This document shows, piece by piece, positions 34,601 through 56,038 of a stretch of DNA of 64,000 nt (position 1 is the first letter of the stretch; each line of letters starts with the position of its first letter). A program made the translations under genes and the position numbers. The stretch comes from Candidatus Poribacteria bacterium (lineage in GTDB: Bacteria; Poribacteria; WGA-4E; WGA-3G): assembly GCA_965205025.1 (NCBI GenBank), contig CBDBFU010000007.1:1-64000 (forward strand), read 5' to 3'. The notes under the pieces were generated by a model. The model ran no database searches and was not told the origin of the DNA. It saw only the letters and a list, made by a program, of their open reading frames with translations.

Positions 34601-35896
34601 CTATTCAAGTTTACGTAGTATTTTGCTAAGCTCTGCTTTTACTAAATTATTATGTTCTTTAGTATTAAAGTAATCATAGATTTTTGATGGTAGATTATCA
34701 TAAGGATCGGCATCAGCTATTTGCTTTATGAGTGAGGGTTTTCCCAGAAGTTGTGTTATACGTATTCTGTCTCTGTGGTTCGCAACTTTTGTTTTTGTCA
34801 AGAGGGTGATTAAACGATGAGCTAATCCAGAAGCTAAGCCGTTCTTTGCATAATGATCCAGTGTATTTACAGTAGCTTGTTTGGTGTGATTGCTTGAATC
34901 ATTTGTAAGAATATCAAACAAATTGTCAACCGCGTTAGCGTCTATGTGCTTTTGTAATGCGATAACAACGTGCTTCCGAACAGTATCATCAGTATCCTTG
35001 AGTGCTGTTACCAATTCTGAGGTAGATGGTTTGTTAAGTAGTTTTATTGATCTTGCAGCGGCTTGTCGTACACCCACATGTTTATCCCTTAATCCCGCTT
35101 CAATTTGTGTGCTGTATTCATTTTTTCCAAGCCGGTAAAGGGCAGTCTTTATCTCCATTTTCAACCCTTTATCATCAACGTTCTTCAGGAGAGATTCTAA
35201 ACGTCCGTGAGTAGATGTGTCTCCTTTTTCGCCGATAATTTGGATTAAATTTACCTTTGCCGAGATAGGAATATCTGGATTTTCGATAGCCGGGAACAGT
35301 TTATCAAAACCCTTCATACCGATTTTTCTTAAAACACTGAGAAAGTCTCCATGTGCTTGACTATATTTATTTTCAGTAAAATCTTGTAATATTAGGGGTA
35401 TGACATCTAAACCTTTATCAGCGAGAATTTGTATAGCATCATTTTGAACGCGATGTTTTTCCCTTAGGATTAAGAAGATCTTTTTTATATGAGAACTATT
35501 TAGTTCGGCAAGTCGTCGGGCGCGCTCACTCTGATATTCTGTCTCCAAATTACGATTTTTTAATAAAGTAGCTTCTTGTGAAAGTGCGTAACTATACGCA
35601 ATGAGCAATAGTGATTGGGCTTCAACTTTGTTTTCTTCTTCGATCTCTGCACGTTTGAGGTGTTCAACAGCTTCTACAGCAAGACCAGCTCCTAATAACT
35701 TAGTTCTACCTGGTGAGATTTCAGGAATGATCTGTTCTTGTTTACAGCCAAACGACACAACCCATGCTAAGATAAGGCATATCGTTAAAAATTTTTTCAT
35801 GTTACGTTCGTTTTCTCCTTCTAACATCAGCGTAAGAGCAATAAAATAGGGATTGTTAATAATGAGACCTTTATGTTTAAACAAAGTAAATCCCAA
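34601..35896 (-). CDS. HEAT-repeat lipoprotein (true start probably MKKFLTI, about 35800)
   Basis: SFGC lipobox; LRDKHVGVRQAAA, LKDTDDTVRKHVVIAL. Confidence 0.8.
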   Translation of the reverse strand: MGFTLFKHKGLIINNPYFIALTLMLEGENERNMKKFLTICLILAWVVSFGCKQEQIIPEISPGRTKLLGAGLAVEAVEHLKRAEIEEENKVEAQSLLLIAYSYALSQEATLLKNRNLETEYQSERARRLAELNSSHIKKIFLILREKHRVQNDAIQILADKGLDVIPLILQDFTENKYSQAHGDFLSVLRKIGMKGFDKLFPAIENPDIPISAKVNLIQIIGEKGDTSTHGRLESLLKNVDDKGLKMEIKTALYRLGKNEYSTQIEAGLRDKHVGVRQAAARSIKLLNKPSTSELVTALKDTDDTVRKHVVIALQKHIDANAVDNLFDILTNDSSNHTKQATVNTLDHYAKNGLASGLAHRLITLLTKTKVANHRDRIRITQLLGKPSLIKQIADADPYDNLPSKIYDYFNTKEHNNLVKAELSKILRKLE

Positions 35897-36033
35897 TTTT
35901 ACTATAGTAAATCAGACACACATTTGTGTCAAGTATTTTTTTAAAGGTATATAGATTCTCCCATGTTATACTTGTTATAGTTGAAACTAAAATGAGGTAT
36001 ATTGAAATGACTTAGACTATACAATTTACTCGT

Positions 36034-37240
36034 CTATTTTCTTATTCGTTCAAACAGATCATTCAGTTCAGTCTTAACGAATGAACTATCCTCATATTTT
36101 TGAGAGTAATCATAGAGTTTACTGTCTATATCATCAACAAGTCTGAGTGCATTTAGTTGTTTTACCAATGCGTCATTCTTGAGGAGCTGCACTACTCGTA
36201 CACGATCATCAGCACTTTTTACTTCTTGATTTATTAACATTTCAGCGAGATGTTTTGCTAATCCTTTTGAAAGACCTGTCCCAGTTTTCGTATAATCAGT
36301 AAGGGTATCAATTACAGCTTGTTTTGTTGCCTTTTCATGTTGGCTCTTAAGGATATCTACCAAAGGTTTTACTGCATTTTTTGTCTTATGAATAGATAAT
36401 GCTTTTGCAATATTAGAAACCACCAATGTATCACTATCATTTAATGAGGATATTAATATATTCTCATTAACATTAGTGATATCTTTCATTGCTTTCGCAG
36501 AAGCACGTCGAACTCCTACGTCATCTGATGTAAGTCCTTTTGTAATCTCAGCCTTGTGTTTTTTATCTCCAAGTTTGTATAGTGTTGTTAGGATTTCCAT
36601 TCTGATTGGGGAATCCATACTCTCTCTATCAATACCATTTAATTTTTCAAGAGCTTTTTTATCACCGATATCACCGATCACTCTAATGAGTTTTTATTTT
36701 TGCTGACGAATTTACATCGGAATCATTTAGTCTATTTAGAATAGGATCAACTGCATCGGACCCAATCTGAACTAAGACAGATAAGAAGGTTGCGTGTGCA
36801 TCTGGATATGAGTTTTTTGCTATGTTATCAACAATAAGAACTGCAGCATCGGTTCCCTTTTCAGCTAAAGCATTTAATCCATTTTTTTGTATCTGTGATT
36901 GTACACTAAGAATTTCAATTAATTTGCTTATTTCTGCCTCATTCATTGCAGCAATTCTTTTCGCTCTTTCTCGTTTAAATTCTGCTTCGCGCTTAAAACT
37001 TTGTGCTGCTTTTGTAGCAAGACCATGAGAATATGCAATCACTAATAGTGCGCGGGCTTCTGACTGATCCTCATCAATTTTCTCTGCTTCTATGAGATGG
37101 TTAATTGAATCTAATGCGAGACCACTATTAATAAGTTTACTTTTTCCTACTGATAAATGACTGGGGCCTTTTGGTTTTGTATCGCAACCAACGATGATAA
37201 TTAGGATAAGAATCAATGAAAGAATTCTAAAGTTCTTCAT
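36034..37240 (-). CDS. Paralogous HEAT-repeat lipoprotein, frameshifted near 36695
   Basis: IVGC lipobox; the two ORFs align end to end with the 34601-35896 protein. Confidence 0.78.
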
Positions 37241-37375: not shown

Positions 37376-38835
37376 CAATACCTTCGCCAAAAACACTTGA
37401 ATAAAAAGGGTGTTTGTCCTAAAGTTTTAAAATATCATTTTAACTTAGAAAGGACACACACCCATGCCAGAAATTATAGCATTATTTACTGTATTTAATC
37501 TATGTTTATCCACTACTATGATCCGCCAGTTATGTCAAGTTGTATTTGCCCTGCTTGCGATGACAGGTCAGGTCACAATGTTAAATATCTCCCGTTGGAC
37601 ATCAAAAGGAGGGAGTTATCGTACGATACAACGCTTCTTTAGCACAGATCTCCCTTGGCCAAAGATGTGTTGGCTCTTTTTCAAAAAATATCTGTTTGAT
37701 CCTAAAAGTTTGTATATCCTTGTAGCAGATGAAGTCACGGTGTCAAAAACTGGGAAAAAAACTTATGGTATAGATCGCTTCTTCTCCTCATTACATGGAA
37801 AACCGATTTCCGGTTTGTCATTTTTAGCGGTGTCCTTAGTAAGCGTCAAAGACAGGTGTTCTTACCCAATGATGATGGAACAAATCGTGCGTAGCAACGC
37901 ATCAGCCAATATGGATGTGTCTGCAATCGAAGATCAGGAGAATACACAGAAAGCCATAACAAAACGAGGGCGTGGTCGCCCCAAAGGGAGCCGGAATCGA
38001 AACAAAAAGGATGTTGTGTTCAGCAATACTTTGAAACAACTTCAAACTATGGTGAAATCATTTCTCAAACAGATGGGAGATTGTATCAAACTCCGTTATT
38101 TTGTGCTTGATGGATATTTCGGACACAATAATGCGCTACAAATGGTATCACAATGTGGTCTCCATCTCATTTCAAAACTTCGCACAGATGCTGCGCTCTA
38201 TTATCCACCAACGACACCGTATAAAGGTCGTGGACGCCGCGCCCCTCTATGGGGATCGTTTCAATCCACAACAAATGGATAACAAATGGCGTGTCTCTGT
38301 TGAAACAACCGATAACATCAGAACCGAAGTGTATCAAGTACACTTGCGTCATAAGCAGTTTGCGGATCCTCTCAATATTGTTTGTCTTCTCAAGACGCAT
38401 CTGCTGACAGGACAAAAATCACACGTGTTATTGTTTAGTTCTGACCTAAAACTGAGTGCTCTAAAGATGATTGATTATTACTCCCTTCGTTTTCAAATAG
38501 AGTTTAACTTCAGAGACGCAAAACAGTATTGGGGGTTGGAAGATTTTATGAATGTCAAAAAAACACCTGTGAACAATGCAGCAAACTTATCCTTGTTTAT
38601 GGTAAATGTGAGTGCGAAAATGGCAAACACATTTCGGTCTAATAACACGGCGTGTAGCGTATTAGATTTGAAAGCAAAATACCGAGCTATGAAGTATTTA
38701 GAGGAAACATTAAAAATACTTCCGCAAAAACCTGAACCTATTGTTATTGAGCAAATCACACAGCACCTTAGTTCTATCGGTGCTATTCATCACACACAGT
38801 TAGAACTAAGCACAGGATAATTGGCGAAGGTATTG
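37376..38835 (+). mobile_element. DDE insertion sequence (IS4/IS701/ISH3-like), 1460 bp
   Basis: 15-bp perfect terminal IR CAATACCTTCGCCAA / TTGGCGAAGGTATTG; TTATAA on both flanks. Confidence 0.9.
37464..38820 (+). CDS. DDE transposase, frameshifted near 38240
   Basis: ADEVTVSK, VLDGYFG, ISKLR, YSLRFQIEFNFRDAKQYWGLEDF. Confidence 0.88.
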
Positions 38836-39058: not shown

Positions 39059-40645
39059 TTAGTTGGTTTCTATAGAAACTTTGGCATTAAAAGCGTTTAT
39101 AGTATCTAATCCTCCCCATTGATCTCCAGTTGCACACAATTTGAAATGTTGTCCTTGATCAAACTTGTACTTAAGTTGAGCGGAGTTCCCTGGGAATATG
39201 CCCCAATATTTAGTTAGTGCGTCAATGGCATTTTTGTATTCATCACTTTGTTGGTCATTCCAAACGTCAGGATCTATTCCGTCTGGAGGTGTTTCCGATG
39301 GTAGTATTTTATCTCCATCAAGTAGATAGAATATTCCAATACCTTTGTCTTTACCGACTTGGATATCGATCGTGAGTGTGCCACCAGTTTCAAATGCTGT
39401 AGTATCTATACCGATAATAGTGTAATCCTGATGTGCGACTTTTAGAGTGCGAAAAGTGTTTAAGATTGTTTGTGATGGTTGTTCATGAGTCAGGATTAGA
39501 TCTCCTAAACCGGGACGTTTTCCCTTTAATGATTCTTTAATGAATGATAGATATAGTTCTTCCTCATTATCGTATTCATCTAAATCGTCCAAGAATTGAT
39601 TATAGTCAAGACTTCCCATCAATTCAAAATCATGTGAGATGACGAAACAGTCTACTGGTGATCCCTGTTTACATCCCTTTAGAATTGTTTTTGCTAAAGG
39701 ATGGTTTGTGTCGAAGGTTGTACCTTCACGTTTTCGTCTATTTGCAATTGGTTCTCTTAAACTGGTCATTCTCCCTAAATCTGCATTTGGCACCCAAGTA
39801 TTGATCAGGTATTCGTTTAAGAAATCAATAATATGATCTTTTGAGAGAGCACCTGCTCTCAGGATTTTTCCACTCCCTCAGCATGATTCGTCAGCGAGGG
39901 GACCGTCAATTGCTATAGCATGTATCGGTTTCTGTAAAGTAGGTGCTAATTCCAAAGCCTCTTCTAATGACACCCAGTTAATTTGTTGGGATTTATAATA
40001 TCGCAGCAACAGCAGACGTTCTGCTTTTTCTTGTATGATTGACTCAATGAATTCTACGTCTTCAAGTTTTGTATCAGTCCATAATTCCATGCGTGGACAG
40101 AAACCGATATCCGCATAGGTGCTTTCTTCTTGTGTCCAACCGATATCGAAGTTTACTGTAGTCGGTGGAACATACATGTTGAAGGAGACTACCTTTTTTT
40201 CTATGTGGTTAATTGTGAGATGTCCAGTAAATTGTGAGGGTGTAAGCCAGCCACTCTCCATCTTGAATTGTGCATGGATACGGAAATGTATTTGAGCGAT
40301 TTCATTATTGTATGCACGCAGGCATGCCCACAATCCGCGTGAATCTCCTGAATCAATATGGAGTTGCAGATGTGGTCGGGGATAGAGTTGTTTCAATAGG
40401 GTTAACACTGCATCTTCTTGGATCTGCCAACAATCTCCTACTACGACTGGATCTGATGAAAGGAATGCCTGAAAGACAGAATTAGTGTACTGTTTCACGG
40501 GTTCAGCAACCTGAATATTTGCCAATTCCTCCCATTCTTTATAATACCCGTAAGAGGAATACTCAAATGGAGCGATATAACCATTTATGGACACATTTGC
40601 GTTCGAATCAAGGTTGAGTATGATTTTGTTAGTTGGATCATTCAT
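39059..40645 (-). CDS. SelN (SELENON)-like selenoprotein, copy 5, 528 aa with Sec at residue 256
   Basis: In-frame TGA at 39878-39880: DGPLADESC-U-GSGKILRAGALSKDHIIDFLNEYLINTWV; frame open on both sides; SECIS at 39845-39860. Confidence 0.88.
39845..39860 (-). promoter_or_regulatory. Bacterial SECIS hairpin (copy 5)
   Basis: GAGAGC-AGGU-GCUCUC, 17 nt after the UGA. Confidence 0.82.
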
Positions 40646-40646
40646 T

Positions 40647-42185
40647 TTACTTTTCCTCTACAGTAATTTTTGCCAGAAATGCATTGATACTTCCTTTCTC
40701 GTCAGATGTCCACCCCATAGCAACCAATTTAAATATCTGTCCCTGTTCAAAACGGTGTGTCATTTGTCCAATTTCACAAGGATCATACCAACCTATATCG
40801 TGTGCATCATCAAACATTATTACTTCCGGACGTTTATGAATTGGATCAAAGGTAAGTTTATGGTCGGCATTGAGCAAAAAGAACGTGCCATAAGCCTTTT
40901 CGTCCCCTACTTCCAAATCAATGGTAAGAGTTCCTCCTTTTTCAAAGTTTGTGGCATCAATTACGATAACTTTGTAGTCTTGGTGTCCATATTCTGGTTT
41001 TCGAAAAACGTCCAGTATCTGTTGTGAAGGCTGGTCAGGGGTGAGAATAGTGTTACCGAATCCCGGGAGTTTTCCATCTAAAGCATCCTTGAGAAACAGG
41101 AGGTAATTCTGGCTTTCCAAAGTGCCGTCTTCACGTCGATTTTCCCCAAGGTAATCATTGACGGCTACATGTCCTATTGCTTCCAGGATAGGAGATATGA
41201 CCCATGTATCCACTGGACCTCTTCGCCATTTGTGCCCAATGATTGTGCGTGCCAATGGAGGCATTTTCTCAAATCCTTGGGAATCCCGCATGTGTTTAAG
41301 GTCAGTATTACGTACCCACATATTGATAAAATTTTCGTTCAGGAATTCGATGATTCGTTCGTCGGAGAGGACACCTGCCCTCAAGTTTTTGCCACTTCCT
41401 CAGCATGCTTCGTCTGCGAGGGGACCATCGATTGAAATGGCATGGATCGGTTTCTGTTGCTCTTGTGATATTTTTAATGCTTCATCAAATGGCACCCAGT
41501 TGATTTGCTGCGACTTATAAAAACGTTGTATTAGCGTATTTTCGACCTCTTCACAGGTGATTGAAGTTATGAATGCAGTTTCCTGATGGACATAATGCTT
41601 TTCTGCCCGAAGTTCAATATGCGGACAAATCCCACCACCAGTACTATAATAATAGTCAGGTTCGTCTTTATATTTTTTCCAATTAACATCGAACAATGTC
41701 CCTTCAGGAACCCGCATCTGGAAAAACGCCACACTCTTATTAATACGATCGATCACCAGATGTCCGGCAAACTGTGAAGGGGTGAACCAACCGTCTTCTA
41801 ATGCGAATTCTGCATGGATACGGAACGTAATATCGGCGAGTTCATCGCTATAAGCGCGGAGACATGCCCATAAACCACATGAATCACCCCTGTTAATGTG
41901 CATATCCAGATTCGGTTTGGCATGAAACTGCCTCAACAAGGTAAGAGCCCCTTGGTCATCAATCTCCCAGTAGTCTCCAACGGAGACAGGTTTATCTGGA
42001 AGGAACGCCTGGAAAACCGTAGTAGGATACGTCTTTTCTGGTTCAGCAACGCAGAAATTTGCCAATGCATCCCATTCTTCATGGAAGTTGGGGTTCATGT
42101 GCTCAATCGGTGCGATAACACCTGTGAGGGAGACTTCTGCATCATTGATAAGTTTAAGTGTTATTTTATTTTCCGTTTTTTTCAA
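40647..42185 (-). CDS. SelN-like selenoprotein, copy 4, 512 aa with Sec at residue 262
   Basis: In-frame TGA at 41400-41402: DGPLADEAC-U-GSGKNLRAGVLSDERIIEFLNENFINMW. Confidence 0.88.
41367..41382 (-). promoter_or_regulatory. Bacterial SECIS hairpin (copy 4)
   Basis: GAGGGC-AGGU-GUCCUC, 17 nt after the UGA. Confidence 0.82.
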
Positions 42186-43719
42186 TTTTATTTTCCTTTA
42201 CAGAAATTTTTGCGAGAAAGGCGTTAGTACAGAATTCTCCTTCGTACCAATAGCCTGAAGCCCCTAACCTAAAGATCTGACCCTGGTCAAATTGGTGTTT
42301 AATCTGTAATTCATCATCTGGTTCACCCCAGGTTTCAGCGAGTGCATCACTCGGTTCTTCTTCATCAGTAGATAGTTCACCTTTTTCAGCAAATAGATAA
42401 AACTCACCATCCCCTTTTTCTCTACCGATTTTAATATCAATTGTAAGTGTGCCTCCATTCTCAAAAGATGTTACGTCAATTACGATTACAGTATAATCTA
42501 AATAACCTACAGTAGGTGTTCTAATAACATCCAACACCTCCTCTGAAGAATTCTCAGGAGTAAGTACAATATTTCCCAATCCGGGTTCTTTTCCCTCCAA
42601 CGCATCCTTTAGAAACATTTTGTAATTTTCAGCACTGGTAGGTATACCCGGTCCTGCGTTGACTTCAAGTTCCCTTATCTGTTTTTTACCTAATAAAACA
42701 AGTTCAGAGGATAGAATGTATGAATCTACTGGAGATCCTTTTCTTGATCCAGTTTTAGTGCCTTTAAGGATAGCTTGTGCTAATGGAAGTGTTGCGTCAA
42801 ACGGATTTCCTTCCCGTTCGCGTTTTTTGGCAATCGGTGCTTGTAATCTACGTACACGTCCTAATTCAGAGTTGGATACCCATGTATTGATAAAGTTATT
42901 ATTTAGAAATTCAATAATTGTGTTTTTTGAGAGGACACCTGCCCTCAATCCTTTACCACTCGCTCAGCATGATTCATCGAAAAGCGGTCCATCTAATATG
43001 ACAGCATGGATGGGTTTCTGTTGTGCCAGTGCCATTTCATGTGCTTCCTGCAGCGATACCCAGTTGATTTTTACTAAATTGTAGAAACGTAATATCAATA
43101 TGCGTTCGGCTTCCTCTTGTGTGATTGAGGTAGCGTATTCAACGTTCTGAAATGTTATGTCAGAACGGAGTTCTATTTTTGGACAATATCCAATTTCGCT
43201 TCCAACTTTATCCTGATAAGCATCAAAGTTTATTGTACCATTTGGCACATACATATTAAAGAATGCGACGTTTTCTGTGGACCGGTTAATTACGATGTGA
43301 CCAGTAAATTGCGAGGGTGTAAATCTACCTCCAATAAGTGTGAATTCTGCATGAATTCGAAACACGATGTCAGCATAATCATCATTATATGCGCGTAGGC
43401 ATGCCCACAGACCGAGTGAATCCCCATTATTGCAGTCCAAATTCAAGTTAGGGTTGGTATGAAGTTGGCTTAGTATTTCTAACACACCGTCCCTGATTTG
43501 CCAACATTCACCAACCGAAACGGAATCCGAAGGTAGAAATGCATTAAACACAGAAGTTGGATGTTGTTTTTCCGGTTCCGAGACTCGTAGATTTGCTAAG
43601 ACATCCCATTCTTCATGGAAGTTGAATTGTGTGTATTCTATTGGAGCAATATAACCTTTTAAGGCTACTTTCGTATCGCTATTAAGTGTGAGTGTAATTT
43701 TCTCAGATATTGTGTTCAT
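42166..43719 (-). CDS. SelN-like selenoprotein, copy 3, 517 aa with Sec at residue 252
   Basis: In-frame TGA at 42964-42966: DGPLFDESC-U-ASGKGLRAGVLSKNTIIEFLNNNFINTWV. Confidence 0.88.
42931..42946 (-). promoter_or_regulatory. Bacterial SECIS hairpin (copy 3)
   Basis: GAGGGC-AGGU-GUCCUC, 17 nt after the UGA. Confidence 0.82.
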
Positions 43720-43780
43720 TGGTCTTCTCTATTTTTAAAATCAGTTTAAATTATTACTAAACTTTTGACAATTTTATGTT

Positions 43781-43908
43781 ATACCATTTCTATAAATGAT
43801 TCTCCCATGATTAGGTGATATTTATGTCTTGAAATACTGCACAAACTGGAAGTTTGTGCTACATTAAAGAGATTTTATTAATGGGACTTTAATTACCAGA
43901 AATGGTAT
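43781..43908. repeat. MITE/REPIN-like element
   Basis: ATACCATTTC..gcacaaactggaagtttgtgctaca..GAAATGGTAT. Confidence 0.75.
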
Positions 43909-43911
43909 AAT

Positions 43912-45228
43912 TTATAATTCAGACTCTATAAAAATATTTGCAAAAAAAGAATTAGTGCTTCCTTTTTCATTAATGAAAGTGTTGCCAATTGCTCTCAACT
44001 GAAATATTGTGCCTTTGTCAAAATAGTGTGTTATTCTTCCAGTTTTACCACTCGGAATGCCTGATGCGGTAGCAACTATGCTACTTTGTACTCCTTCCTT
44101 AGAGCGTTCGGCTTTGCCATCAAATAGGGAAAATGATCCAGAAGCATTTGCGCTACCTACCCAGATTTCAATGGTAAGGGTGCCACCATCCTTGTAGGCT
44201 GTCGTATCAATTTGAACAATAGTGTAATCATTAGAATCTGCGTTTGGCGTTCGGAATATTCCTAAAACATTTTTTGACGACTCCTCGCTGTTGAGTACTA
44301 CATTTTCAATTGGATCAATGGACGATATGCTATCTGATTCTGTAGTAGCCCCATTGCTCTTACCAGTGACATCAGAATGTCCTACTCGCTTTCTCACATC
44401 CATTTTTGATGGCACATTCAGAACTGCGGGTACATCAACAATAGCAACAGTCTTTTCTGATATTGCATCATAATCATACGGTTCTTGGAAATGGGTTAAG
44501 TATTGATTACCTATCCCATACATCAAGGTCATAACAACAAAGATTGAAGCGGCGATTATCCACGGAACAATAGGTTTATTTTCAGGGGTAATAGAAGGTT
44601 TTATTCGACAAACCTCTTGGAGAATATTCTTTGTTAGATTTGGCGAGATTTTAAAATGTTCTAATGCTTCCCTAATTATTAATTCATTTTTCTTTAAACG
44701 TTGTCGACCACGTCGGAGACGACTCTTAACAGTGCTTAGTGATACACCTAACATTTTACTAATTTCTGCACATGTCATTTCTCCTAAATAATGAAGCGTC
44801 ATCACAGTCCGTTCACTCTCCTGCAACTTTGATAGTAGTGTCTTTACTACTTCACGTTGAGAGTTGACAGTAGCTTTTTCCTTATCCTCTGCTACATATC
44901 TGGAATAAGCATCATTTTCTATCAAGTCATTGACCTTGTCATCTAACACCTCGGTTTGTAGATGGTTTTTTCGTAACCAGGCAAGACAACACCGTGAAGT
45001 AACAACATAAAGCCATCCAAGAAACTGTTTTGGATCTTTAAGAGTTGACAACTTCTGATATACTCTCAAAAATGTATCTTGAGTAATATCCTCAGCAATA
45101 TGGAAGTCCCCTATTTTCCGCCATGCAATTGCATGAACATGCTTTTGATATCTTTCAACTAAGGTGGAAAAAGCAGTGTCATCACCTTCAAGGATACGGT
45201 GAATTAATACTACATCGTCGTTTTCCAT
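43912..45228 (-). CDS. ECF sigma-70 factor with a TM helix and a C-terminal domain shared with the SelN-like proteins
   Basis: ILEGDDTAFSTLVERYQ..AEDITQDTFL..WLY; EISKMLGVSLSTVKSRLRRGR; TM PWIIAASIFVVMTLMYGIG; then DYTIVQIDTTAYKDGGTLTIEI..FQLRAIG..NSFFANI. Confidence 0.9.
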   Translation of the reverse strand: MENDDVVLIHRILEGDDTAFSTLVERYQKHVHAIAWRKIGDFHIAEDITQDTFLRVYQKLSTLKDPKQFLGWLYVVTSRCCLAWLRKNHLQTEVLDDKVNDLIENDAYSRYVAEDKEKATVNSQREVVKTLLSKLQESERTVMTLHYLGEMTCAEISKMLGVSLSTVKSRLRRGRQRLKKNELIIREALEHFKISPNLTKNILQEVCRIKPSITPENKPIVPWIIAASIFVVMTLMYGIGNQYLTHFQEPYDYDAISEKTVAIVDVPAVLNVPSKMDVRKRVGHSDVTGKSNGATTESDSISSIDPIENVVLNSEESSKNVLGIFRTPNADSNDYTIVQIDTTAYKDGGTLTIEIWVGSANASGSFSLFDGKAERSKEGVQSSIVATASGIPSGKTGRITHYFDKGTIFQLRAIGNTFINEKGSTNSFFANIFIESEL

Positions 45229-45314
45229 TAGATACCTCAATGAAGACTTCCCATTACTCATGCAAGTCAGATACATTTTGTATGAAAGAACATGCTAACA
45301 ACCTGAACCTTTCT

Positions 45315-46964
45315 CTATCTACTTTGTTCTATTGATATTGTTAGTAGAAATGCATTCATGCTTCCTTCATCACTAAACCAATTACCCGTAGCCCCGAGTT
45401 TAAAGACTTGACCTTTCTTAAATTTATACCTGATGATTTTACTATTACCGGGTGATATGTCCCATGCGTTGACGAGTGCGTCTCTTGGAACCCCTTCCGT
45501 GGGAATCTTTGTCTGATTATCAAACAGATCAAATGAACCACTTGCTTCAGCACTCCCGACCGAGATATCAATAGAAAGTATACCGCCGTTAATAAAGGCA
45601 GTGGTGTCCAATTTCAATGACAGTATAATCTTGATGACCCCTTTTTGGTGTTCGAAAAACGTTGAGGATTTGTTGTTGAGATTTCTCTGCAGTGAGTTTA
45701 ACTTTTTGCCCTTTCACTATTGCAGGATCTAAGTTATCTATCACTTCAACATCTAACCCTGGGTATTCCCCTGCTAATGCCTCTTGTAAAAACACGAAGT
45801 AATCCCGTCCCCAGTTTGATGATGGAAATTCATTGACCGGTTGTCTCCCCATAACTTCAAGATCTGTTGAGATTACTAAAGAGTCTGCTGGTGAACGCTC
45901 TTTCCAACCTTTGATGACGGCTTGAATTAATGGGTCATTTTTGTCTAATTTACGAAATCCCTCTTCCTGTCTTTTCGTGATATAAGCGTGCATTACTGAT
46001 GTGCGTCCTAATTCTATATTTGATACCCAAGTATTAATAAACTTATCGTTCAATAATTGTATATTCCGTTTATTAGAGAGGGCAACTGGCCCTCAAGGCT
46101 TTGCCACTTCCTCAGCAGGCTTCGTCATTCATCGGACCATCTATTGAGATAACATGGATCGGTTTATCTTGTTTCTTGTGCCAACCTTAACGCATCATCA
46201 AGAGGAACCCAATTAATTTGGTAAAAACTATAAAAACGATGTGCAAGAGTCATCTCTGCTGCCTGTTGTGTAATGGATTCTTCGAATTGGATATTCTCCA
46301 AAATATATCTTGTGTCCCACTACGGAGTTCCATTTGTGTACAGACACCAGAATCTATTATACTATAATCCCTATCTTTATATTTTTTCCATCCAACATCA
46401 AAGTTAATTACCCCATCAGGGACATACATATTGAAGAACACTACCTTTTTTTCCATGCGATCAAGTATGAGATGTCCCTTAAACTGTGATGGCGTGAACC
46501 GACCGTCTTTTAACTCAAACTCTGCATGAATTCGAAACACGATGTCAGCATATTTATCGTTATAGGCACGTAGACATGCCAACAATCCATAGGAATCTCC
46601 GGAGTCAATGTGCATAGAATACTTTGGTTTTTGGGAGGAGTTGTTGCAATAATGGGAGTATTCCTTCCGCATTTATTTTCCACAGTTCACCAACTGAAAC
46701 CGGTTTGTCTGGCAGAAAAGCCTGAAAAACCGTTGTTGGATGCTGTTTTTCCGGTTCGTTTTCCCGTAGATTTGCTAATGCATCCCACTCCAAATGGAAA
46801 TTGTTTATAGTTATCTCAATCGGAGCAATGAATGCGTTGACTGATATCTGTGATGTATCTTCAATAGTAAGCAATACTTTTTCTCCGTTCACTAAACTGT
46901 CATCTGCGAAAATATGGCAGTTGATTAAAATCAAAATAGAACAATACAAAATTACGATTTTCAT
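45315..46964 (-). CDS. SelN-like selenoprotein, copy 2, with signal peptide; several frameshifts in this assembly
   Basis: Fragments 46605-46964, 46250-46672, 45589-46053 and 45315-45617 tile the paralog; TGA at 46112-46114 in DGPMNDEAC-U-GSGKALRA. Confidence 0.78.
46078..46094 (-). promoter_or_regulatory. Bacterial SECIS hairpin (copy 2)
   Basis: GAGGGC-(C)AGUU-GCCCUC, 17 nt after the UGA; one extra base also shifts the reading frame. Confidence 0.72.
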
Positions 46965-47026
46965 TTCAAGAATCCTTTCTATTTGTGTATTTATAGTAAA
47001 CTTTAGATTTAATTAGACACTTTACT

Positions 47027-47070
47027 TGTAGGAGCGACCTCCTGGTCGCGACCGGGAGGTCGCTCCTACA
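47027..47070. repeat. Near-perfect 44-bp GTAG-type REP-like palindrome
   Basis: tgtaggagcgacctcctggtcg-cgaccgggaggtcgctcctaca; half copy at about 49432. Confidence 0.8.
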
Positions 47071-47463
47071 GAAGAGGTGTGGGACGCGAACGTAAGTTGA
47101 TCCAATAGAAAATGTAGTATTCATTTTATTGTTTACTATAATACACAATGAATTTACTGCTATCAACAGTATTTCTACACATAGAAACTCGGACATTATT
47201 GTTATGGCAAATATTTTTGTATACTTTTATTTAGGTCATACGATCACTCACAAGTTAGTCAACGAGAAATAAAAAATGACAACCTAAAAGAAATCATGCA
47301 ACATTTCCTAATTGAACAATATAGTGACGCGTGTAATGTATAAAACGGTTGCGTAATTCTGCATATTCTTGATGAAATAATCGAGATATAATCATTAAAA
47401 TAACATACTCAGATATAGTAATTATGATTTTACCTGTCTAAAATATGTAGGTGACAACTTGGT

Positions 47464-49126
47464 TTATTCTACAGATATTCTTGCTTGAAATGCATTGACA
47501 GAATCTTTACTATCCTTTATTTCCGAGGCTGCTAATGCAAACCTGAAATGTTGGCTACGGTAGAATGGGTACGAAATTTTCGCTGTTCCATTTTGAGGGA
47601 CATCTGTTGCATTTGCAATGGATTGATCGTATCGTTGTCCTCGTTTTTGTGGGAATTGAATGTCTCCTTCGTATAAATAGCAGGAAGTAATGAATTCTGC
47701 ACTTCCAAACCGTATATCAATGTTAAGTGTGCCACCATTTTCGAATGCGGTGGCATCAATATTTACAATAGTGGACTCCTGAAAACCTGCCTTGGGAGTT
47801 CTTACAACATCTACCACTTCTAATGTGGATTGTTCGGAATTGAGAACTACATCTAAACCAGTTATGTAAGGTATTAATGGATTTTTTTGTTCATTTGTAT
47901 CTTCCACATCTTCTAACAGATAAGCGAATGAATTGTCAGTATTGAATCCAGGTAATTTTCTTTCTAATGACTCAATGAGAAAGAGACGGTAGTTTTCTGC
48001 TCTTGTTCTACCCCCATCCCAATCGTGTCCATCGTAAAGATATTTGTTCAAGGGTAGTTTACCTATCACTTCAAAATCAGGTGATATAACAAGGCAATCA
48101 ACAGGAGATCTCTCATGCCAACCCTCTTTAATTGCTTGTGCTAAAGCATGATTCGTATCAAACGTTTTTTCCTTGTCCGCATATCTTTTAGCGATGTATT
48201 CCCGGGAACTCGGTTTCCGTCCTGCTTCAAAATTGGATACCCATGTGTTGATGAAGTTATCGTTTAGAAATTTAATGACACGTTCATTTCCGAGGACACC
48301 TGCCCTCAAGTCTTTTCCGCTCCCTCAGCAGGCTTCATCAGTAAGTGGTCCATCAAGTGAAATAGCATGAACAGGTTTCTGTTGCTTTGGTGCTAATTCA
48401 AGTGCTTCTTCTAACGAAACCCAGTTAATCTGTTGTGAATCATAGAATTTCAGAATTAGGTTGTGTTCTGCTTCCTCTTGACTAATGGCTTGTGTGTATT
48501 TGACACCATTTAAGACCTCTTCTGAACCTGTCCATAGTTCCATTCTTGAGCAGTAACCACAGTCAGTGATCCACCGTGGTTTATCCCAGTCATCTAATAT
48601 AGTTTCCCAATGTACATCGAAGTTTAATGTGCCTTCCGGTACACCCATTTGAAAGTATGATACAGATTCTTGTGTGCGGTCAATTACAAGGAGTCCAGCA
48701 AACTGTGAAGGTGTAAACCAACCATCAGTGAGTGCGAATTCAGCATGAATCCGGAATACAATATGAGCGAGTTGATTGTTGTATGCCCGTAAACATGCGC
48801 GGAGACCTTTTGCTTCCTCTATACCGTACATTTCTACACGCATTTCTAAAGATGGATTAGGATGGAGTTGTTTTAACAGTCTTGTTGCCGTGCCTTGTTT
48901 TATGTCCCAGCATTCACCCACTGCGACAGATTCAGGTGGGAGAAAGTCATGAAAATCGGAATGAGAATACTGACTTTCTGGTTCTGCGGTTTGCCAATTT
49001 GCTAATGCATCCCATTTTTTCGTGAAAGTTTCCAGCAGTATGTTGGATTGGTGCTATTGTTGCATTTACGGTGATTTCTGTTTTACTGTTTATGTTTAAG
49101 TTAATTTTATCTGTATGTGTATTCAT
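47464..49126 (-). CDS. SelN-like selenoprotein, copy 1, about 553 aa (one extra A near 49015-49020)
   Basis: ATG 49126 MNTHTDKINLNINSKTEITVNATIAPI; in-frame TGA at 48325-48327: DGPLTDEAC-U-GSGKDLRAGVLGNERVIKFLNDNFINTWV. Confidence 0.85.
48292..48307 (-). promoter_or_regulatory. Bacterial SECIS hairpin (copy 1)
   Basis: GAGGGC-AGGU-GUCCUC, 17 nt after the UGA. Confidence 0.82.
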
Positions 49127-49150
49127 CTGATTTCTCTAATTTATCTAATT

Positions 49151-49265
49151 ATACCATTTCTATAAATTATTGTCTCATTAGGCGGTGATTATGGTAGTCA
49201 TTTTTCAGGTCACAAACTGGAAGTTTGTGGTACAAAAAAGAGACATTTTCAATTAGAAATGGTTT
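49151..49265. repeat. MITE/REPIN-like element
   Basis: ATACCATTTC..cacaaactggaagtttgtggtaca..GAAATGGTTT. Confidence 0.72.
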
Positions 49266-51732: not shown

Positions 51733-54306
51733 TTAAATGGTTGTTAATACGGCACTGAGAGCATCCCAGAAAGGATTTTCATTTGTTTCATTATAGAATG
51801 GTAAACCAATCAAACGGAAATCTTTGCTATCAATAGTTAAAAGTTTGTCTTTAAATTCGGCAGTTATCTCTTTCATGAATCTTTCTTTCCATCTGTCAGT
51901 CGGTTGAAGAAATTTACCTTTAGGTTCAACGAAAAATTGAAAACAGACTAATTCTCCTTTTTTCTGTTGAAGGAACAAAGCGAAATCAGGATAAAACGCC
52001 TGCCCATCGGAGAAGTTATAGATTGCAAAGTGCTTCTCGTTGCGAAGAAGATAGATCTCGTTATGATTTACACCTAAGTCCTTAACCTTTCTGATTAATA
52101 GATCAACAAAGGCTTTTTCTTCACTTGTGCCGTAGAGCGCATTAAAGGCATACCAGTTTTCATTTTCAAATTGCCGATCAATAGTTGCGCGTGGGTTACG
52201 TTCGTCAAACTTCAAGAGTTTATCTTTAAAAATATTGTGGATTTGTTTCGGGCGGAAGTGTTTTGTTCCCTGGAATTCAGTTGCTTGTTCTCGAATTTCG
52301 GATTCGATTTGACTTAACAGCCCCTTACATGCTGACAGTTTTACTGAACGATTTTCATCCAAATCGGAGATATTTCCCTTGAAAGTGATTGCCAAACCAC
52401 CCAATAAGTTCTCCGATGTCATAAATTCACGGATAGATGTTAAATGTGGGAAATAGTGTTTGAGCGATGCAAACGTGAAAAACGGATTGTACGCAATTGC
52501 TGTTCTCAGAATATTCTGTTCAATATCACAAATAGGTATGTCCTGTGCATCTTCGTGCTGTTCCGAAGTTGGTGCCTCATTCTCCATAACGGTAGTTTGA
52601 CCTACGAAACCTGTATGCATGATATGCTCGTAGTTTTTCTGTTTCACACTTAGACTTGCCAAGTCGTTAAAGGAGTTAACATGCTGATAATCTGTTGGGG
52701 CCTGATCATTAAGCCAGATAACACCGTATTTATAAAAATTGGTTCTCTTGAATTTATCCTTCAACTTTAGCTTGCGAGTTACAAGGCGTTCGTCCATCAT
52801 GCCTTGTTGAATTAGGGCAGTGCTGATTTCAGAGATGTAGCGCGAATCGTTAATACTATGGTAATGGAGTTCTTCCAACACACGGAGTTCATGGTTTCGT
52901 TCCTCATCAAACTTACGGAGAAACCGATCTGGATAGTCTGGCAGCACAAAAGGAAAATAACGTGCACCGCGTCCAATAAGTTGTGCTTCGGAAATTGTTG
53001 TCTTACCGATTTTACCTTGTCCTGAGTCTCGGGTTTCGTAGCAACGGACAATATCAAATAGGTTCAGTACATCCCAACCTTCATTGAGTTTTTGCACGGC
53101 AAAGATAGCACGGATCGGATTGTTTTTGTCTTCAAGTGTGTTTACCTGTATCTGATAATTTTTCTTTTCATCTTCATCGTTAACTGAGAGGCAGTATGCT
53201 TCCTGAAATTCGTGCTTCAGACGTTGTATCAGTTGTTCAGTGTTTATTCCGTTTTCATTAAAAAAGCGGAATGCCTGTTGAATAATCTCAGACTTTGATT
53301 TCCGAATGACTTGGATTTGGGCATCGGTTAGTCCTTCAATCAGTTTGTGAAAGTTATCCTTGTTTTCTTCTGATTGCGCGATTGTCTTTTGTGCCTTGAA
53401 CAGAATAACTGGTTTTAGGTTAATACCGTTTTTCTCAGCAACCTCCTGCTTATAGTAATTGAGTATGAGTGCTTGCAAGATACGGGAGTCCTGATCTAAA
53501 TCGGAATGCACAAGTTCCACTTCTTTTGAATACTTGTCATTCCGATAATTTATTAGGTCATACTGATAGATAATTTTATTCCGATATTTTTGGACCATCG
53601 CTGGTGTTTCATAATCGTGTGTAGCGGTGAATTCCAACAATAGATTAGCGTCATTGGACGTAAAGATGCGCTGCACCGTGTTTTCCCAACTTTCAAATAA
53701 CTCCATTCCTATTTGTGTCTTTGTGCTAACGTTCATGTGATGTGCTTCATCTGCCAATAACACAATTTGCTGTTCAGCGAAATTCTCATAGGTTAAAGTA
53801 TTTTCTTTTTCCGTTGTCATGTCGGTGTGGAGTTGCTGTATCGTTGTAAAGCAGATATTGATGTCATTTTCGTTGACTCCTTCAAAATTCTCTACTTGCG
53901 TCACTGCTATCGGTTTCCCTTCAAAACGGATGTCTTGACTGAAAAGGTATTTCGCTGTGCGCGGGTTAAGGAAGTTGTCCTTTGTCTTTTCAATGATATT
54001 GGTAGAGTTGACGAAAAAGAGGAAGTTACGATACCCTTTTTCATAGAGGTAGAGAATCAAACCTGCCATGATGAGCGTTTTGCCACTACCAGTTGCCATG
54101 TTGAACAGTAGATGTAGAGGTATTTCCTTCTCCTCAAAATCGTTTTCAAAACAGAGAATAAACCGTGTGAATGCTTCCTCTTGGTAAGGACGGAGTGGGA
54201 AGGTAGGGTTTAGGTTATCTCTTATGTATGCGGGAATTTCGGTGTCTCGAAGGGTTTTCCGTCCGAATTCCTCTAATACTGTTTCGTGTAAGAATTTATT
54301 CTGCAT
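51733..54306 (-). CDS. res: Type III restriction enzyme Res subunit
   Basis: LRPYQ, FNMATGSGKT, DEAHH, EGWDVLNLFDI, QLIGRGARY, FYPDF..VEPKG. Confidence 0.93.
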   Translation of the reverse strand: MQNKFLHETVLEEFGRKTLRDTEIPAYIRDNLNPTFPLRPYQEEAFTRFILCFENDFEEKEIPLHLLFNMATGSGKTLIMAGLILYLYEKGYRNFLFFVNSTNIIEKTKDNFLNPRTAKYLFSQDIRFEGKPIAVTQVENFEGVNENDINICFTTIQQLHTDMTTEKENTLTYENFAEQQIVLLADEAHHMNVSTKTQIGMELFESWENTVQRIFTSNDANLLLEFTATHDYETPAMVQKYRNKIIYQYDLINYRNDKYSKEVELVHSDLDQDSRILQALILNYYKQEVAEKNGINLKPVILFKAQKTIAQSEENKDNFHKLIEGLTDAQIQVIRKSKSEIIQQAFRFFNENGINTEQLIQRLKHEFQEAYCLSVNDEDEKKNYQIQVNTLEDKNNPIRAIFAVQKLNEGWDVLNLFDIVRCYETRDSGQGKIGKTTISEAQLIGRGARYFPFVLPDYPDRFLRKFDEERNHELRVLEELHYHSINDSRYISEISTALIQQGMMDERLVTRKLKLKDKFKRTNFYKYGVIWLNDQAPTDYQHVNSFNDLASLSVKQKNYEHIMHTGFVGQTTVMENEAPTSEQHEDAQDIPICDIEQNILRTAIAYNPFFTFASLKHYFPHLTSIREFMTSENLLGGLAITFKGNISDLDENRSVKLSACKGLLSQIESEIREQATEFQGTKHFRPKQIHNIFKDKLLKFDERNPRATIDRQFENENWYAFNALYGTSEEKAFVDLLIRKVKDLGVNHNEIYLLRNEKHFAIYNFSDGQAFYPDFALFLQQKKGELVCFQFFVEPKGKFLQPTDRWKERFMKEITAEFKDKLLTIDSKDFRLIGLPFYNETNENPFWDALSAVLTTI

Positions 54307-54336
54307 TCTCCTGATTTCTTTTAAGAATGATAGGAA

Positions 54337-54827
54337 TTATATAACCCATTTTTCTTTTTTTATTAAATCCACAACTTTGATACATTCAATTTTAAAGTGC
54401 ATGCAAACATCAGGTATTTTTGGTCTTTTTACACTACCCGTAAGGTTTTCCTCGGTTACAACAGTACAATTTTCTGTGATTAGTGCGTAAGCAATACACC
54501 AAGGGTCTGCTCCTGATTTTCCAGACCGACTGTCTACAAGACGCGGGAATTCTGCTAATATCTCACGGACTTTTTCTTGAACAGGTATATCAATTCCTCA
54601 TATAGGTATTGTCTGAATTGATTTTGGTTACACCACTGTTTTATTTCAGGATCTTTCATAGTTTCTTCAAAAACAACTTGTGACATTTTCAACCTATGAC
54701 TTCGAATCAGTTGTTCAATCTTATTCCATAAAGTAGGAAAGGAATTGATTGGATAGTGTTCATGAAATGCAGCGATTGTGGAACTGGTGTCTATGCTATA
54801 GATGTTAACTTCAGACTGATTATTCAT
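54337..54827 (-). CDS. DUF4411 PIN-like protein, frameshifted near 54590
   Basis: YSIDTSS..YPINSFPTLW; other frame continues GADPWCIAYA..VVTEE..KIPDVC. Confidence 0.82.
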
Positions 54828-56038
54828 TTAAAAATAGAACTTTCAATTTTAGAAAGATGTTTTGTGGCACAATTGGAAAAAACAGATGTTAAATCTGCAA
54901 GTGTAATTTTGTCTTCATAATACGCGCTGAAAGCAGTGCGCGCAAAATACTCTCCAGTAGCGTTAAGTAACCGCGTATGATAATGTGGAAAACCTTTAGG
55001 ATTTTGATCGGTCTCGTTATACTTATTTTGTTGTTCAATTCTAAATGTTTGGTACATTTGTCGTGTGATCTTTTTGAGTGTTAACAACCGTCGCATGATA
55101 ACTTCAATACTAACCCCAAAGTGTTGACATGCTTCGGTTAATAATTTTAAACTGAAGGGAGGTTCTACTATTGTTAGTAGTTCTTTTTCAGGAACTAACA
55201 CTTCTGCTGCAACTTGATTACAGAAGACTTCCACCGGGTCTACATTTTGAAAACTGACATCTTCGTATTTCATATTCTGAATGATACTTTCCCCAAGAGC
55301 AATATGTACTAATTCGTGTAAAATCGTAAAAATTCGTCCATTAGGACTGTCTTGAGAATTTAAAACGATAACGGGAAAAGGTTTTTGTGCAATACAGAAT
55401 CCGCGGAAAGTTTTCAATTCAACAGAAAGGTGTGTGTTAGCAGAAGTTTGACAAACGAGAATCCCTTTTGACTCCACAGTCCGTTTCCAAAACTTCAATA
55501 CTTTATAACGATCCTTGGTTCGTGGGAGTATTTCAGTATTAGTGTTTAGAAATTTCCTTATTTTCTCGGCAGCGCGGATGTATGTTTCATTACGATTGAC
55601 CTTTATTGAGACTTCAGGAAAAGGCATATCTAACAATTCATAAAAGTCAATCAATGTTTCCCGTCTATCAAAAACTTCAAGAATATTCGCTTTCAATCTA
55701 TAGGTCTGCTCATTATCGGGAGCGGTAGTCTGTGGCAATACACGATAGTCTGTAAGTGGGTGAAAATCGGTAGGTGGTTTCGGCAAGTAGAAAATAGAGA
55801 CATGCGTCTTATAGATATTGGCAATCTTCTTTAATTGCGCGAAGGTCGGTTGTTCTTTACCGTCTTCCCAGTCAGTAAGACGTTCTGGGTCAATTTTTAG
55901 TTTTTCTGCCGCCAAATCAAGATCTAAGTTGATACGCCTTTCCCGCGCCCACTTTAGAACTTCTGGCGTAATGAGTGCTTTTACAGATTTAGCCATAGTA
56001 TTTATTCCTACTAAATTTGAAGAGGGTAAATCAATCAC
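54824..56038 (-). CDS. XRE-HTH plus ImmA/IrrE metallopeptidase
   Basis: VLKWARER..WEDGKEQPTFAQL; RIFTILHELVH; EVFCNQVAAEVLVP. Confidence 0.92.
   Translation of the reverse strand: MIDLPSSNLVGINTMAKSVKALITPEVLKWARERRINLDLDLAAEKLKIDPERLTDWEDGKEQPTFAQLKKIANIYKTHVSIFYLPKPPTDFHPLTDYRVLPQTTAPDNEQTYRLKANILEVFDRRETLIDFYELLDMPFPEVSIKVNRNETYIRAAEKIRKFLNTNTEILPRTKDRYKVLKFWKRTVESKGILVCQTSANTHLSVELKTFRGFCIAQKPFPVIVLNSQDSPNGRIFTILHELVHIALGESIIQNMKYEDVSFQNVDPVEVFCNQVAAEVLVPEKELLTIVEPPFSLKLLTEACQHFGVSIEVIMRRLLTLKKITRQMYQTFRIEQQNKYNETDQNPKGFPHYHTRLLNATGEYFARTAFSAYYEDKITLADLTSVFSNCATKHLSKIESSIFK

Follow-up and report, generated by a model that had tools for sequence, protein, structure and literature searches.

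Do bacteria carry members of the selenoprotein N (SELENON, SelN) family, and do they read UGA as selenocysteine (Sec, U) within them? The question is raised by a 64,000-nucleotide stretch of Candidatus Poribacteria bacterium DNA, positions 1-64000 of contig CBDBFU010000007.1 (C7 here; assembly GCA_965205025.1), which we call the window and which belongs to a genome of 5.66 Mb in 33 contigs that is 95% complete. On its minus strand, between 39059 and 49126, lie five paralogs, each of which appears to end at a TGA codon and continues beyond it in the same frame. We propose, with a probability of about 80%, that these five genes encode bacterial members of the SELENON family, in which the UGA is read as Sec to form a Cys-Sec redox pair on a thioredoxin fold.

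SELENON (SEPN1) is a human disease gene, mutated in SEPN1-related myopathy. Its biochemistry is poorly defined and, to our knowledge, it has no experimental structure; sequence and profile searches of the PDB returned no SELENON entry. Reviews describe a protein of the endoplasmic reticulum (ER) lumen that acts in the redox control of SERCA2. Lobanov et al. (2007) considered SelN apparently animal-specific, and the account of orthologs in a 2026 SELENON review (PMC12839072) gives vertebrates and some invertebrates, with bacteria unmentioned there. The first-pass annotation of this DNA likewise took SelN to be mainly animal, which agrees with Lobanov et al. 2007, but an algal survey records SELENON in a few algae, so the family is not strictly animal. 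The main text of a 2026 catalogue of prokaryotic selenoproteins (PMC13188914) contains no SELENON entry and no CUG or SCU motif. We found no report of a bacterial SELENON homolog in the full-text literature, a search that leaves supplements and subscription journals outside, so that an earlier report is possible; specialists may also have noticed the likeness without publishing it, because plain BLASTP sees it. Text matches to 'selenoprotein N' in PMC13326102 proved to be 'selenoprotein name', and SELENON-like matches in PMC13188914 proved to be 'selenonucleoside', 'selenoneine' and 'selenoprotein neighborhoods'.

The selenoproteins that a 2026 review names, in the part concerned, as examples of those shared by bacteria and eukaryotes are only SelD, GPX, deiodinase-like, SELENOW-like and MsrA proteins, a short list to which a SELENON-like family would add a large group. 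Poribacteria genomes carry several to at least eight such genes each, and current annotation lists all of them as truncated hypothetical proteins. Bacterial homologs that are soluble, among them natural Cys-Cys forms that can be made without Sec machinery, would be tractable for structure and enzymology and would serve the study of the SCUG centre and the conserved N-terminal domain; the family also bears on how an animal selenoprotein and its recoding hairpin arose.

A tandem array of five interrupted genes

The five genes are transcribed in the order E, D, C, B, A:

Copy A, 39059-40645, minus strand: 528 amino acids (aa), SCUG motif, U256, TGA at 39878-39880
Copy B, 40647-42185, minus strand: 512 aa, ACUG motif, U262, TGA at 41400-41402, TTG start
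Copy C, 42166-43719, minus strand: 517 aa, SCUA motif, U252, TGA at 42964-42966
Copy D, about 45315-46949, minus strand: ACUG motif, TGA at 46112-46114, frameshifts in the window
Copy E, 47464-49126, minus strand: ATG at 49126, ACUG motif, TGA at 48325-48327, one frameshift in the window

The residues before the TGA are DESC in copies A and C and DEAC in B, D and E, and those after it are GSGKILRA (A), GSGKNLRA (B), ASGKGLRA (C), GSGKALRA (D) and GSGKDLRA (E). All five codons stand after DE[S/A]C at the positions given in the first-pass annotation (39878, 41400, 42964, 46112 and 48325), with the same-frame resumption as [G/A]SGKxLRA that it had described. Its further statement that the third, fourth and fifth copies (C, B and A by transcription) are otherwise intact at 512-528 aa also held: when TGA is read as U, exactly one lies in frame in each of A, B and C. 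Under the standard reading (table 11) the five genes fall into 12 open reading frames, as had been anticipated, and NCBI annotates the gene halves as 'hypothetical protein'.

The genes are tightly packed, such that copy B begins 20 nucleotides (nt) within the end of copy C and copy A starts one base past the stop of copy B; the stop codons of all five are TAA or TAG. The start of copy D is uncertain (TTG 46949, TTG 46934 or GTG 46892), and its N-terminus resembles a signal peptide, with a hydrophobic stretch ending IFA-DDS. No signal peptide was detected in copies A, B, C and E. Between copies D and C lies a single gene for an extracytoplasmic function (ECF) sigma factor fusion, considered below.

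Homology to animal selenoprotein N

Aligned by hhalign, profiles of 12 Poribacteria proteins and 11 animal SELENON sequences matched with a probability of 100% and an E-value of 1.1e-43, over 345 columns at 29% identity. The match spans residues 18-375 of copy B, starts at column 112 of the SELENON profile and reaches the C-terminal end of SELENON, placing the U site against the animal DDQSC...SGRTLRE. The same 12-protein profile was searched against 1.84 billion cluster representatives (the matches standing for clusters at 50% identity), and found 816 proteins at E <=1e-3, 541 at <=1e-10 and 166 at <=1e-30, most of which end at profile position 280, that is, at the UGA. Three animal proteins, from wombat, Nematostella and a jellyfish, are among the best 150 matches; the wombat (marsupial) protein, a SELENON paralog whose relatives are named Selenoprotein N, was matched at E 7.2e-33 (hmmsearch). 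BLASTP of copy B against a human SELENON isoform (UniRef) gave E 7e-23, with 72/276 residues identical. Judged by sequence comparison, the homology to SELENON is highly significant, bearing out the profile match that the first-pass annotation expected. The human motifs that it had named are present in this isoform and align by BLASTP with those of the window in the same order, namely ACLRA, FRIHAEF, TPxQF, MEL, KP/L-H and DD/E-x-C-U-G-S-G-K/R-x-LR.

When 64 sequences are aligned, 39 columns reach 85% conservation or more among the bacterial rows and likewise among the animal rows, and in 31 of the 39 the two groups share the same residue. These conserved columns include R122 and H124 (FRIHAEF), P136, Q138 and F139 (TPSQF), C261, G265 and R269, the last being the Arg that animal SELENON likewise keeps three residues past GSG[K/R]; Cys261 is kept in 96% of bacterial rows. 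Animal SELENON also shares a thioredoxin-like region and a Sec site adjacent to Cys at the same position, Sec decoding being predicted here. It differs in several respects: the Poribacteria proteins add a C-terminal beta-sandwich of approximately 130 residues that has no animal counterpart, they occur in multi-copy tandem arrays, and their recoding hairpin lies in frame, whereas the SECIS (Sec insertion sequence) of animals is in the 3'-untranslated region. Its client SERCA does not exist in the bacterial context, and animal SELENON is lumenal whereas most Poribacteria copies have no export signal.

Neither Pfam nor NCBIfam holds a family model for the window's SELENON-like proteins, which begin at the conserved beta domain and match no EF-hand or other Pfam domain, and phmmer against PDB sequences gave 0 hits. 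The only matches, to Thioredox_DsbH (Pfam, residues 223-291, E 0.11), DUF2521 and CUB, were at chance level.

Reading of the UGA codon

The Sec genes named in the first-pass annotation (selA, selB, selC and selD) are all present in the genome: selA (599 bits), selB (366 bits) with tRNA-Sec (78.5 bits) 58 nt away, and selD, all above curated cut-offs. The selD gene (contig C4:104148-105074, minus strand, locus L011) itself has one in-frame TGA, in the context ...KCAG-U-ASKL..., so that SelD would itself be a selenoprotein in this genome.

To survey the codon we took 79 Poribacteria loci together with contigs C4 and C7, in which 241 tblastn hits include 237 that cover it; some of these loci overlap and the copies are not all distinct, with approximately 205 distinct downstream sequences. 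The codon at the U site is TGA in 236 of 237 copies and TCA in 1. Among the 223 copies away from locus ends, the frame is open for at least 242 codons upstream of the TGA in 221, and the same frame is open for at least 250 codons downstream in 214; the other nine run 12-189 codons, the shortest, of 12, being copy D as assembled in the window.

Homologs with Cys at the U position, also foreseen at first pass, exist among the metagenomic relatives. A Cys-Cys pair, mostly as CDESCCG[ST]GK, is found in 17 of 20 aligned relatives (P0130, P0132, P0142, P0146 and P0171 among them); these proteins are about 405 aa long, most carry signal peptides, and the C-terminal end of each coincides with that of SELENON. 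Taken together, the sequences indicate that the UGA is most likely read as selenocysteine. We infer that Sec is inserted in vivo, where the single in-frame UGA would be decoded by SelB and tRNA-Sec.

A putative SECIS inside the reading frame

A hairpin begins 20 nt past the UGA (+21 to +36), inside the reading frame, with a 6-bp stem and the loop AG[G/U]U:

Hairpin of copy A, 39845-39860, minus strand: putative SECIS, GAGAGC-AGGU-GCUCUC, with compensatory changes relative to B, C and E
Hairpin of copy B, 41367-41382, minus strand: putative SECIS
Hairpin of copy C, 42931-42946, minus strand: putative SECIS
Hairpin of copy D, 46079-46094, minus strand: putative SECIS, disrupted in the window by an extra letter at 46088
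Hairpin of copy E, 48292-48307, minus strand: putative SECIS, GAGGGC-AGGU-GUCCUC

Across 149 of 199 distinct 54-mers, 96.1% of 894 cells are paired, against 45-80% when the partner is slid; changes on both sides occur in three of the six pairs, and the observed score was reached by 0 of 500 shuffles. A perfect 6-bp stem forms in 172 of 205 distinct sequences and a perfect 5-bp stem, shifted by two, in 27 more, giving 199 of 205 with a perfect stem in one of two registers. Five sequences form 5 of the 6 pairs, and among the 205 only window copy D, with its extra letter at 46088, has no intact stem. Loop position 2 is G in 201/206 and position 4 is U in 205/206, the loop reading AGGU in 133/205 and AGUU in 63/205; the selD hairpin of the same genome has the loop CGGGU. 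We regard this element as a putative bacterial SECIS with a G in its apical loop, which would direct Sec decoding.

The apparent frameshifts in copies D and E

As assembled, copy D has several frameshifts and copy E has one, in a run of A near 49015-49020. We compared window 45300-49200 with Logan contigs of four public runs (X1-X4). X1 is the run nearest to the window and otherwise shows no differences on the compared pieces; it is possibly the window's source sample and hence not independent, while X2-X4 come from other studies. In copy D the run contigs omit one letter each at 45608, 46088, 46172 and 46628, and two at 46303. The gaps at 45608, 46088, 46172 and 46303 are present in all four runs, and that at 46628 in X2, X3 and X4, X1 having no contig that covers the place. 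In copy E one letter is omitted at 49015 (X1 contig) or 49018 (X4 contig); here the X2 contigs retain the letter, and X3 has no contig there.

Without the extra letters, copy D has a frame of 542 codons and copy E one of 556, each with a single TGA, and the corrected proteins align to copy B residues 7-511 (D) and 6-510 (E). Since the frameshifts are absent from the contigs of the four runs, they are probably assembly indel errors, and all five genes are most likely intact; copy D as a pseudogene and copy E as truly frameshifted were rejected, the run contigs being without the extra letters. Overall, window 45300-49200 has at least 7 extra letters in 3.9 kb relative to the four runs, mostly in short homopolymers, and other apparent frameshifts in the same genome may also be assembly errors.

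Predicted fold and redox centre

An AlphaFold2 model of copy B residues 1-380, made with the 64-sequence alignment, reached a predicted local distance difference test score (pLDDT) of 92.9 and a predicted template modelling score (pTM) of 0.90. It comprises a beta-rich domain (17-194) and a beta-alpha-beta-alpha-beta-beta-alpha domain (about 211-369), in which C261-U262 lies between strand 247-252 and helix 263-270. Foldseek against the PDB returned, at probability 1.00, DsbH-domain proteins (7tkv, 3ira), DsbH (2ju5), AGR2/AGR3, ERp19 and thioredoxins, and gave no confident structural match for the N-terminal beta domain. In a profile alignment to 3ira, the Cys-Sec pair falls on the CHWC motif. 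The redox centre is accordingly modelled, not solved, as a vicinal Cys-Sec pair at the CxxC position of a thioredoxin fold. An earlier model of the full-length protein, built from 12 sequences, was of low quality (pLDDT 67.8, pTM 0.43), and its Foldseek search gave generic beta-sandwiches for the C-terminal domain only; this domain is, by prediction, a beta-sandwich, for which we draw no finer assignment.

These models suggest a protein of about 510-560 aa that would comprise three parts (copy B numbering): an N-terminal beta-rich domain (~17-195), a thioredoxin-fold domain (~210-370) and a C-terminal beta-sandwich (~385-512). The Cys-Sec pair ([S/A]-C-U-[G/A]) would sit at the N-terminus of the first thioredoxin-fold helix, where thioredoxins have CxxC. 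There it would cycle between the selenol/thiol and selenenylsulfide states, as does the GCUG of thioredoxin reductase and as is proposed for SELENON, and would thereby act on client molecules, reducing their oxidised cysteines or peroxides; both this chemistry and its substrates are what we infer from the predicted centre.

Three groups of known proteins invite comparison. DsbH/DUF255-type and AGR/ERp19-type proteins (7tkv, 3ira, 2ju5, 3ph9, 1sen) are the best structural matches (probability 1.00, TM 0.5-0.67 by target) and carry their redox motif at the start of helix 1, but sequence identity is 13-20%, the motif is CxxC rather than C-U-G-S with a vicinal resolving Cys, and the large N-terminal beta domain of the bacterial SELENON-like proteins has no confident match among them. 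The GCUG of thioredoxin reductase, to which reviews liken the SCUG of SELENON (PMC12839072), is also a vicinal Cys-Sec pair followed by Gly; it belongs, however, to a flavoenzyme, where it lies on the flexible C-terminal tail rather than within a thioredoxin fold, and there is no homology. Catalogued bacterial thioredoxin-like selenoproteins (SaoT with UxxC; KCU-star/DUF466 with CU; PMC13188914) share the in-frame UGA, the downstream hairpin and a Sec in the redox motif, and the window proteins stand apart from them in matching no NCBIfam or Pfam model and in belonging to a family absent from that catalogue's main text.

Distribution and phylogeny of the family

This genome holds seven SELENON-like copies, all with TGA, five in the array and two on contig C4 (12511-16902); the second of the latter has a duplicated C-terminal beta-sandwich and 395 codons after U. 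Across the phylum, 131 of 176 genomes match at E <=1e-10, and by family the matches fall in 109/111 (f1), 10/11 (f2), 11/29 (f3) and 0/24 (f4-f11). Many genomes have at least 8 matches, and as many as 6 copies stand within a 13.5-kb locus. The first-pass annotation spoke of a family expanded five-fold; five copies do stand in the array, but the genome has more, and most genomes of the phylum carry the family. Among genome contigs, the best 80 of 314 relatives are all Candidatus Poribacteria, and in the Atlas the clusters closest to a Cys form are 'Selenoprotein N' (score 0.93) together with bacterial clusters labelled mostly Planctomycetota. These genes belong to a large bacterial branch of the SELENON family, so far unannotated, which most probably uses Sec.

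Phylogeny, from which the first-pass annotation hoped to read the direction of transfer, gave a divided answer. We built a quick tree of 64 chosen rows, of which 31 are N-terminal halves cut at U; its bacterial rows carry no taxonomy, and neither sponges nor algae are represented in it. Left unconstrained, this tree groups all 11 animal sequences in a single clade (support 100) with a long branch, and the window copies fall in a Poribacteria clade that is nested among bacterial/metagenomic sequences, beside a Cys-Cys clade. This separates animals from Poribacteria, but a tree holding the two together was not rejected by the approximately unbiased (AU) test (p 0.18).

A membrane-tethered sigma factor beside a putatively exported paralog

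The gene between copies D and C is a fusion:

43912-45276, minus strand: ECF sigma-transmembrane-beta-sandwich fusion, Pfam Sigma70_r2 and Sigma70_r4_2, one transmembrane segment

Over its last 136 aa it shares 33% identity with copy B 378-512 (E 7e-17), and copy D, the copy with the signal-peptide-like N-terminus, directly precedes it. Locus L073 has the same pair, a signal-peptide copy followed by a sigma-transmembrane-beta-sandwich gene. Within 6 kb of a SELENON-like gene, an ECF sigma gene was found in 10 of 79 loci, 7 of which hold the clear signal-peptide copies. Moreover, P0132 (Cys-Cys) and P0202 (cut at U) are ECF sigma-transmembrane proteins fused to a whole SELENON-like domain. The recurrence of the copy D and sigma fusion pair in other Poribacteria suggests that one branch of the family takes part in envelope redox sensing. 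By analogy, the periplasm could be likened topologically to the ER lumen for those forms that bear a signal peptide.

At L073:1960-12437 the gene order is periplasmic PD40/TolB-like beta-propeller genes, two signal-peptide SELENON-like genes and two ECF sigma-transmembrane fusions, one of the latter being 951 aa long with a large outer domain.

Weighing the explanations

Several observations weigh against a Sec-dependent SELENON-family enzyme. The N-terminal transmembrane segment and EF-hand of animal SELENON are absent from the bacterial proteins, and the fold rests on a predicted model, not a solved structure. The hairpin is short, its covariation is modest (15 cells), and its stem codes for the conserved peptide LRAGVL, which accounts for some of the conservation. 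Sec is replaceable: two proteins have Trp and one copy has TCA (Ser), and among the 20 best-scoring orthologs of one signal-peptide clade, 9 have Gly (GGA or GGC) and 8 TGA, the remaining 3 having been missed by the pattern search and listed with one TGA. By a crude hydrophobicity rule, of whose 16 'SP-like' calls about 4 look false by eye, no signal peptide is seen in 200 of 216 Poribacteria copies, and about 12 have a clear one; since SELENON is lumenal and most Cys forms are exported, compartment and clients may differ. One departure from the Sec reading would be that the TGA is a real stop and that the halves are separate proteins or the genes are decaying. Gene callers do cut the genes there, and a TTG lies 16 nt past the TGA of copy B, but the downstream frame is kept open in nearly all copies, the Cys, Gly and Trp forms are continuous proteins, and the genome has the full Sec machinery. 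The codon also divides the thioredoxin fold, with strand 1 before it and helix 1 after, so that neither half could fold by itself; the seeming decay of copies D and E is not shown by the contigs of the four runs. We consider a true stop barely credible.

Two further alternatives accept the homology but give the genes another history or another role. Poribacteria might have taken eukaryote-like genes recently from their sponge hosts, as a host-mimicry trait: they live in sponges, close relatives of this stretch occur in runs labelled sponge metagenome, sponges have SelN (table in PMC3473315), and the AU test tolerates the joined tree. Yet the animals form their own well-supported clade on a long branch, the Poribacteria copies are nested in bacterial/metagenomic sequences (in a tree that held no sponge sequence), the 816 matching clusters are mostly of the bacterial gene-call type with Planctomycetota among the nearest Atlas clusters, and the genes are intronless, carry an in-frame hairpin of bacterial type and lack both transmembrane segment and EF-hand. 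That the family spreads so widely among bacteria speaks for its being an old bacterial one, and a recent sponge-to-symbiont transfer is not supported by these sequences; we hold it to be quite improbable. Somewhat less improbable, though still unlikely, is a reading in which Sec (or its replacement) does enter the proteins, yet these serve as redox/ligand-sensing and binding modules and not as turnover enzymes, the SELENON-like domain reporting oxidant or selenium status to membrane-tethered ECF sigma factors and the paralogs without signal peptide being diversified binders. The sigma fusions that carry a whole SELENON-like domain (P0132, P0202) and the family's beta-sandwich on the window fusion fit this well, as does the fact that all 7 loci of clear signal-peptide copies are among the 10 with an ECF sigma homolog; Gly, Trp or Ser at the U site of some orthologs indicates a protein kept without Sec. 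Against it, the near-universal TGA and the retention of Cys261 are constraints that fit catalysis, and a sigma gene is nearby in 10/79 loci only. Sensing and catalysis are not mutually exclusive, and we retain the reading of a catalytic Cys-Sec pair in a SELENON-family protein.

The nine Gly-for-Sec orthologs lie at loci L102-L110 (genomes G164, G159, G125, G142, G140, G144, G170, G152 and G120), and one of them also has Ser replacing the neighbouring Cys. The hairpin stem is kept in these orthologs, while the loop G is lost (AACU) in 3/9, which hints at constraint having relaxed once Sec was lost. That the G or W at U sites might be TGA translated under code 25 or 4 was considered and rejected; the DNA of the 9 orthologs has real GGA/GGC codons.

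A possible bacterial ancestry of the SEPN1 recoding hairpin

In some eukaryotic selenoprotein genes the UGA is closely followed by a stem-loop (Sec redefinition element, SRE). Such stem-loops have been proposed to derive from bacterial SECIS elements (Mariotti et al. 2015), and the SRE of human SEPN1 has been functionally tested and stimulates recoding. The Poribacteria hairpin covers codons homologous to SELENON, encoding LRAGVL against the animal LRETVL. A speculative history, which we put forward tentatively and think less likely than not, would have animal and algal SELENON descend from an old, diverse bacterial family of exported Cys-Cys/Cys-Sec thioredoxin-fold proteins, with the human SEPN1 SRE as a relic of the bacterial in-frame SECIS. 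In Poribacteria the family would have radiated into mostly cytoplasmic tandem paralogs, one exported paralog being coupled to a membrane-tethered ECF sigma factor and serving as a redox sensor based on selenium. If this is true, SELENON would be the first gene in which the proposed origin of SREs from bacterial SECIS elements is testable codon by codon.

Surroundings of the array

Below the array lie genes for HEAT-repeat proteins (34601-36681, minus strand), and above it (51733-56038, minus strand) a ResIII/DEAD helicase gene and a gene for a helix-turn-helix (HTH) plus IrrE-like peptidase; we saw no link between these HEAT-repeat, helicase and HTH/IrrE-like genes and the array. Directly downstream is a DDE transposase gene (37464-38820, plus strand), split into two overlapping open reading frames (DDE_5 and DDE_Tnp_1), a split that may be a real frameshift, a programmed frameshift or a further assembly indel. 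Between copies E and D, a palindromic intergenic repeat resembling repetitive extragenic palindromic (REP) elements occupies 47027-47070 (within 46990-47140); it gives 113 blastn hits on 22 of the 33 contigs and has very high word depth in all four runs. Another repeated sequence lies upstream of copy E at 49149-49260 (130 hits, 27 contigs), with a copy that is 75% similar upstream of copy C at 43779-43872, and this repeat may be a shared promoter or leader element of the two genes.

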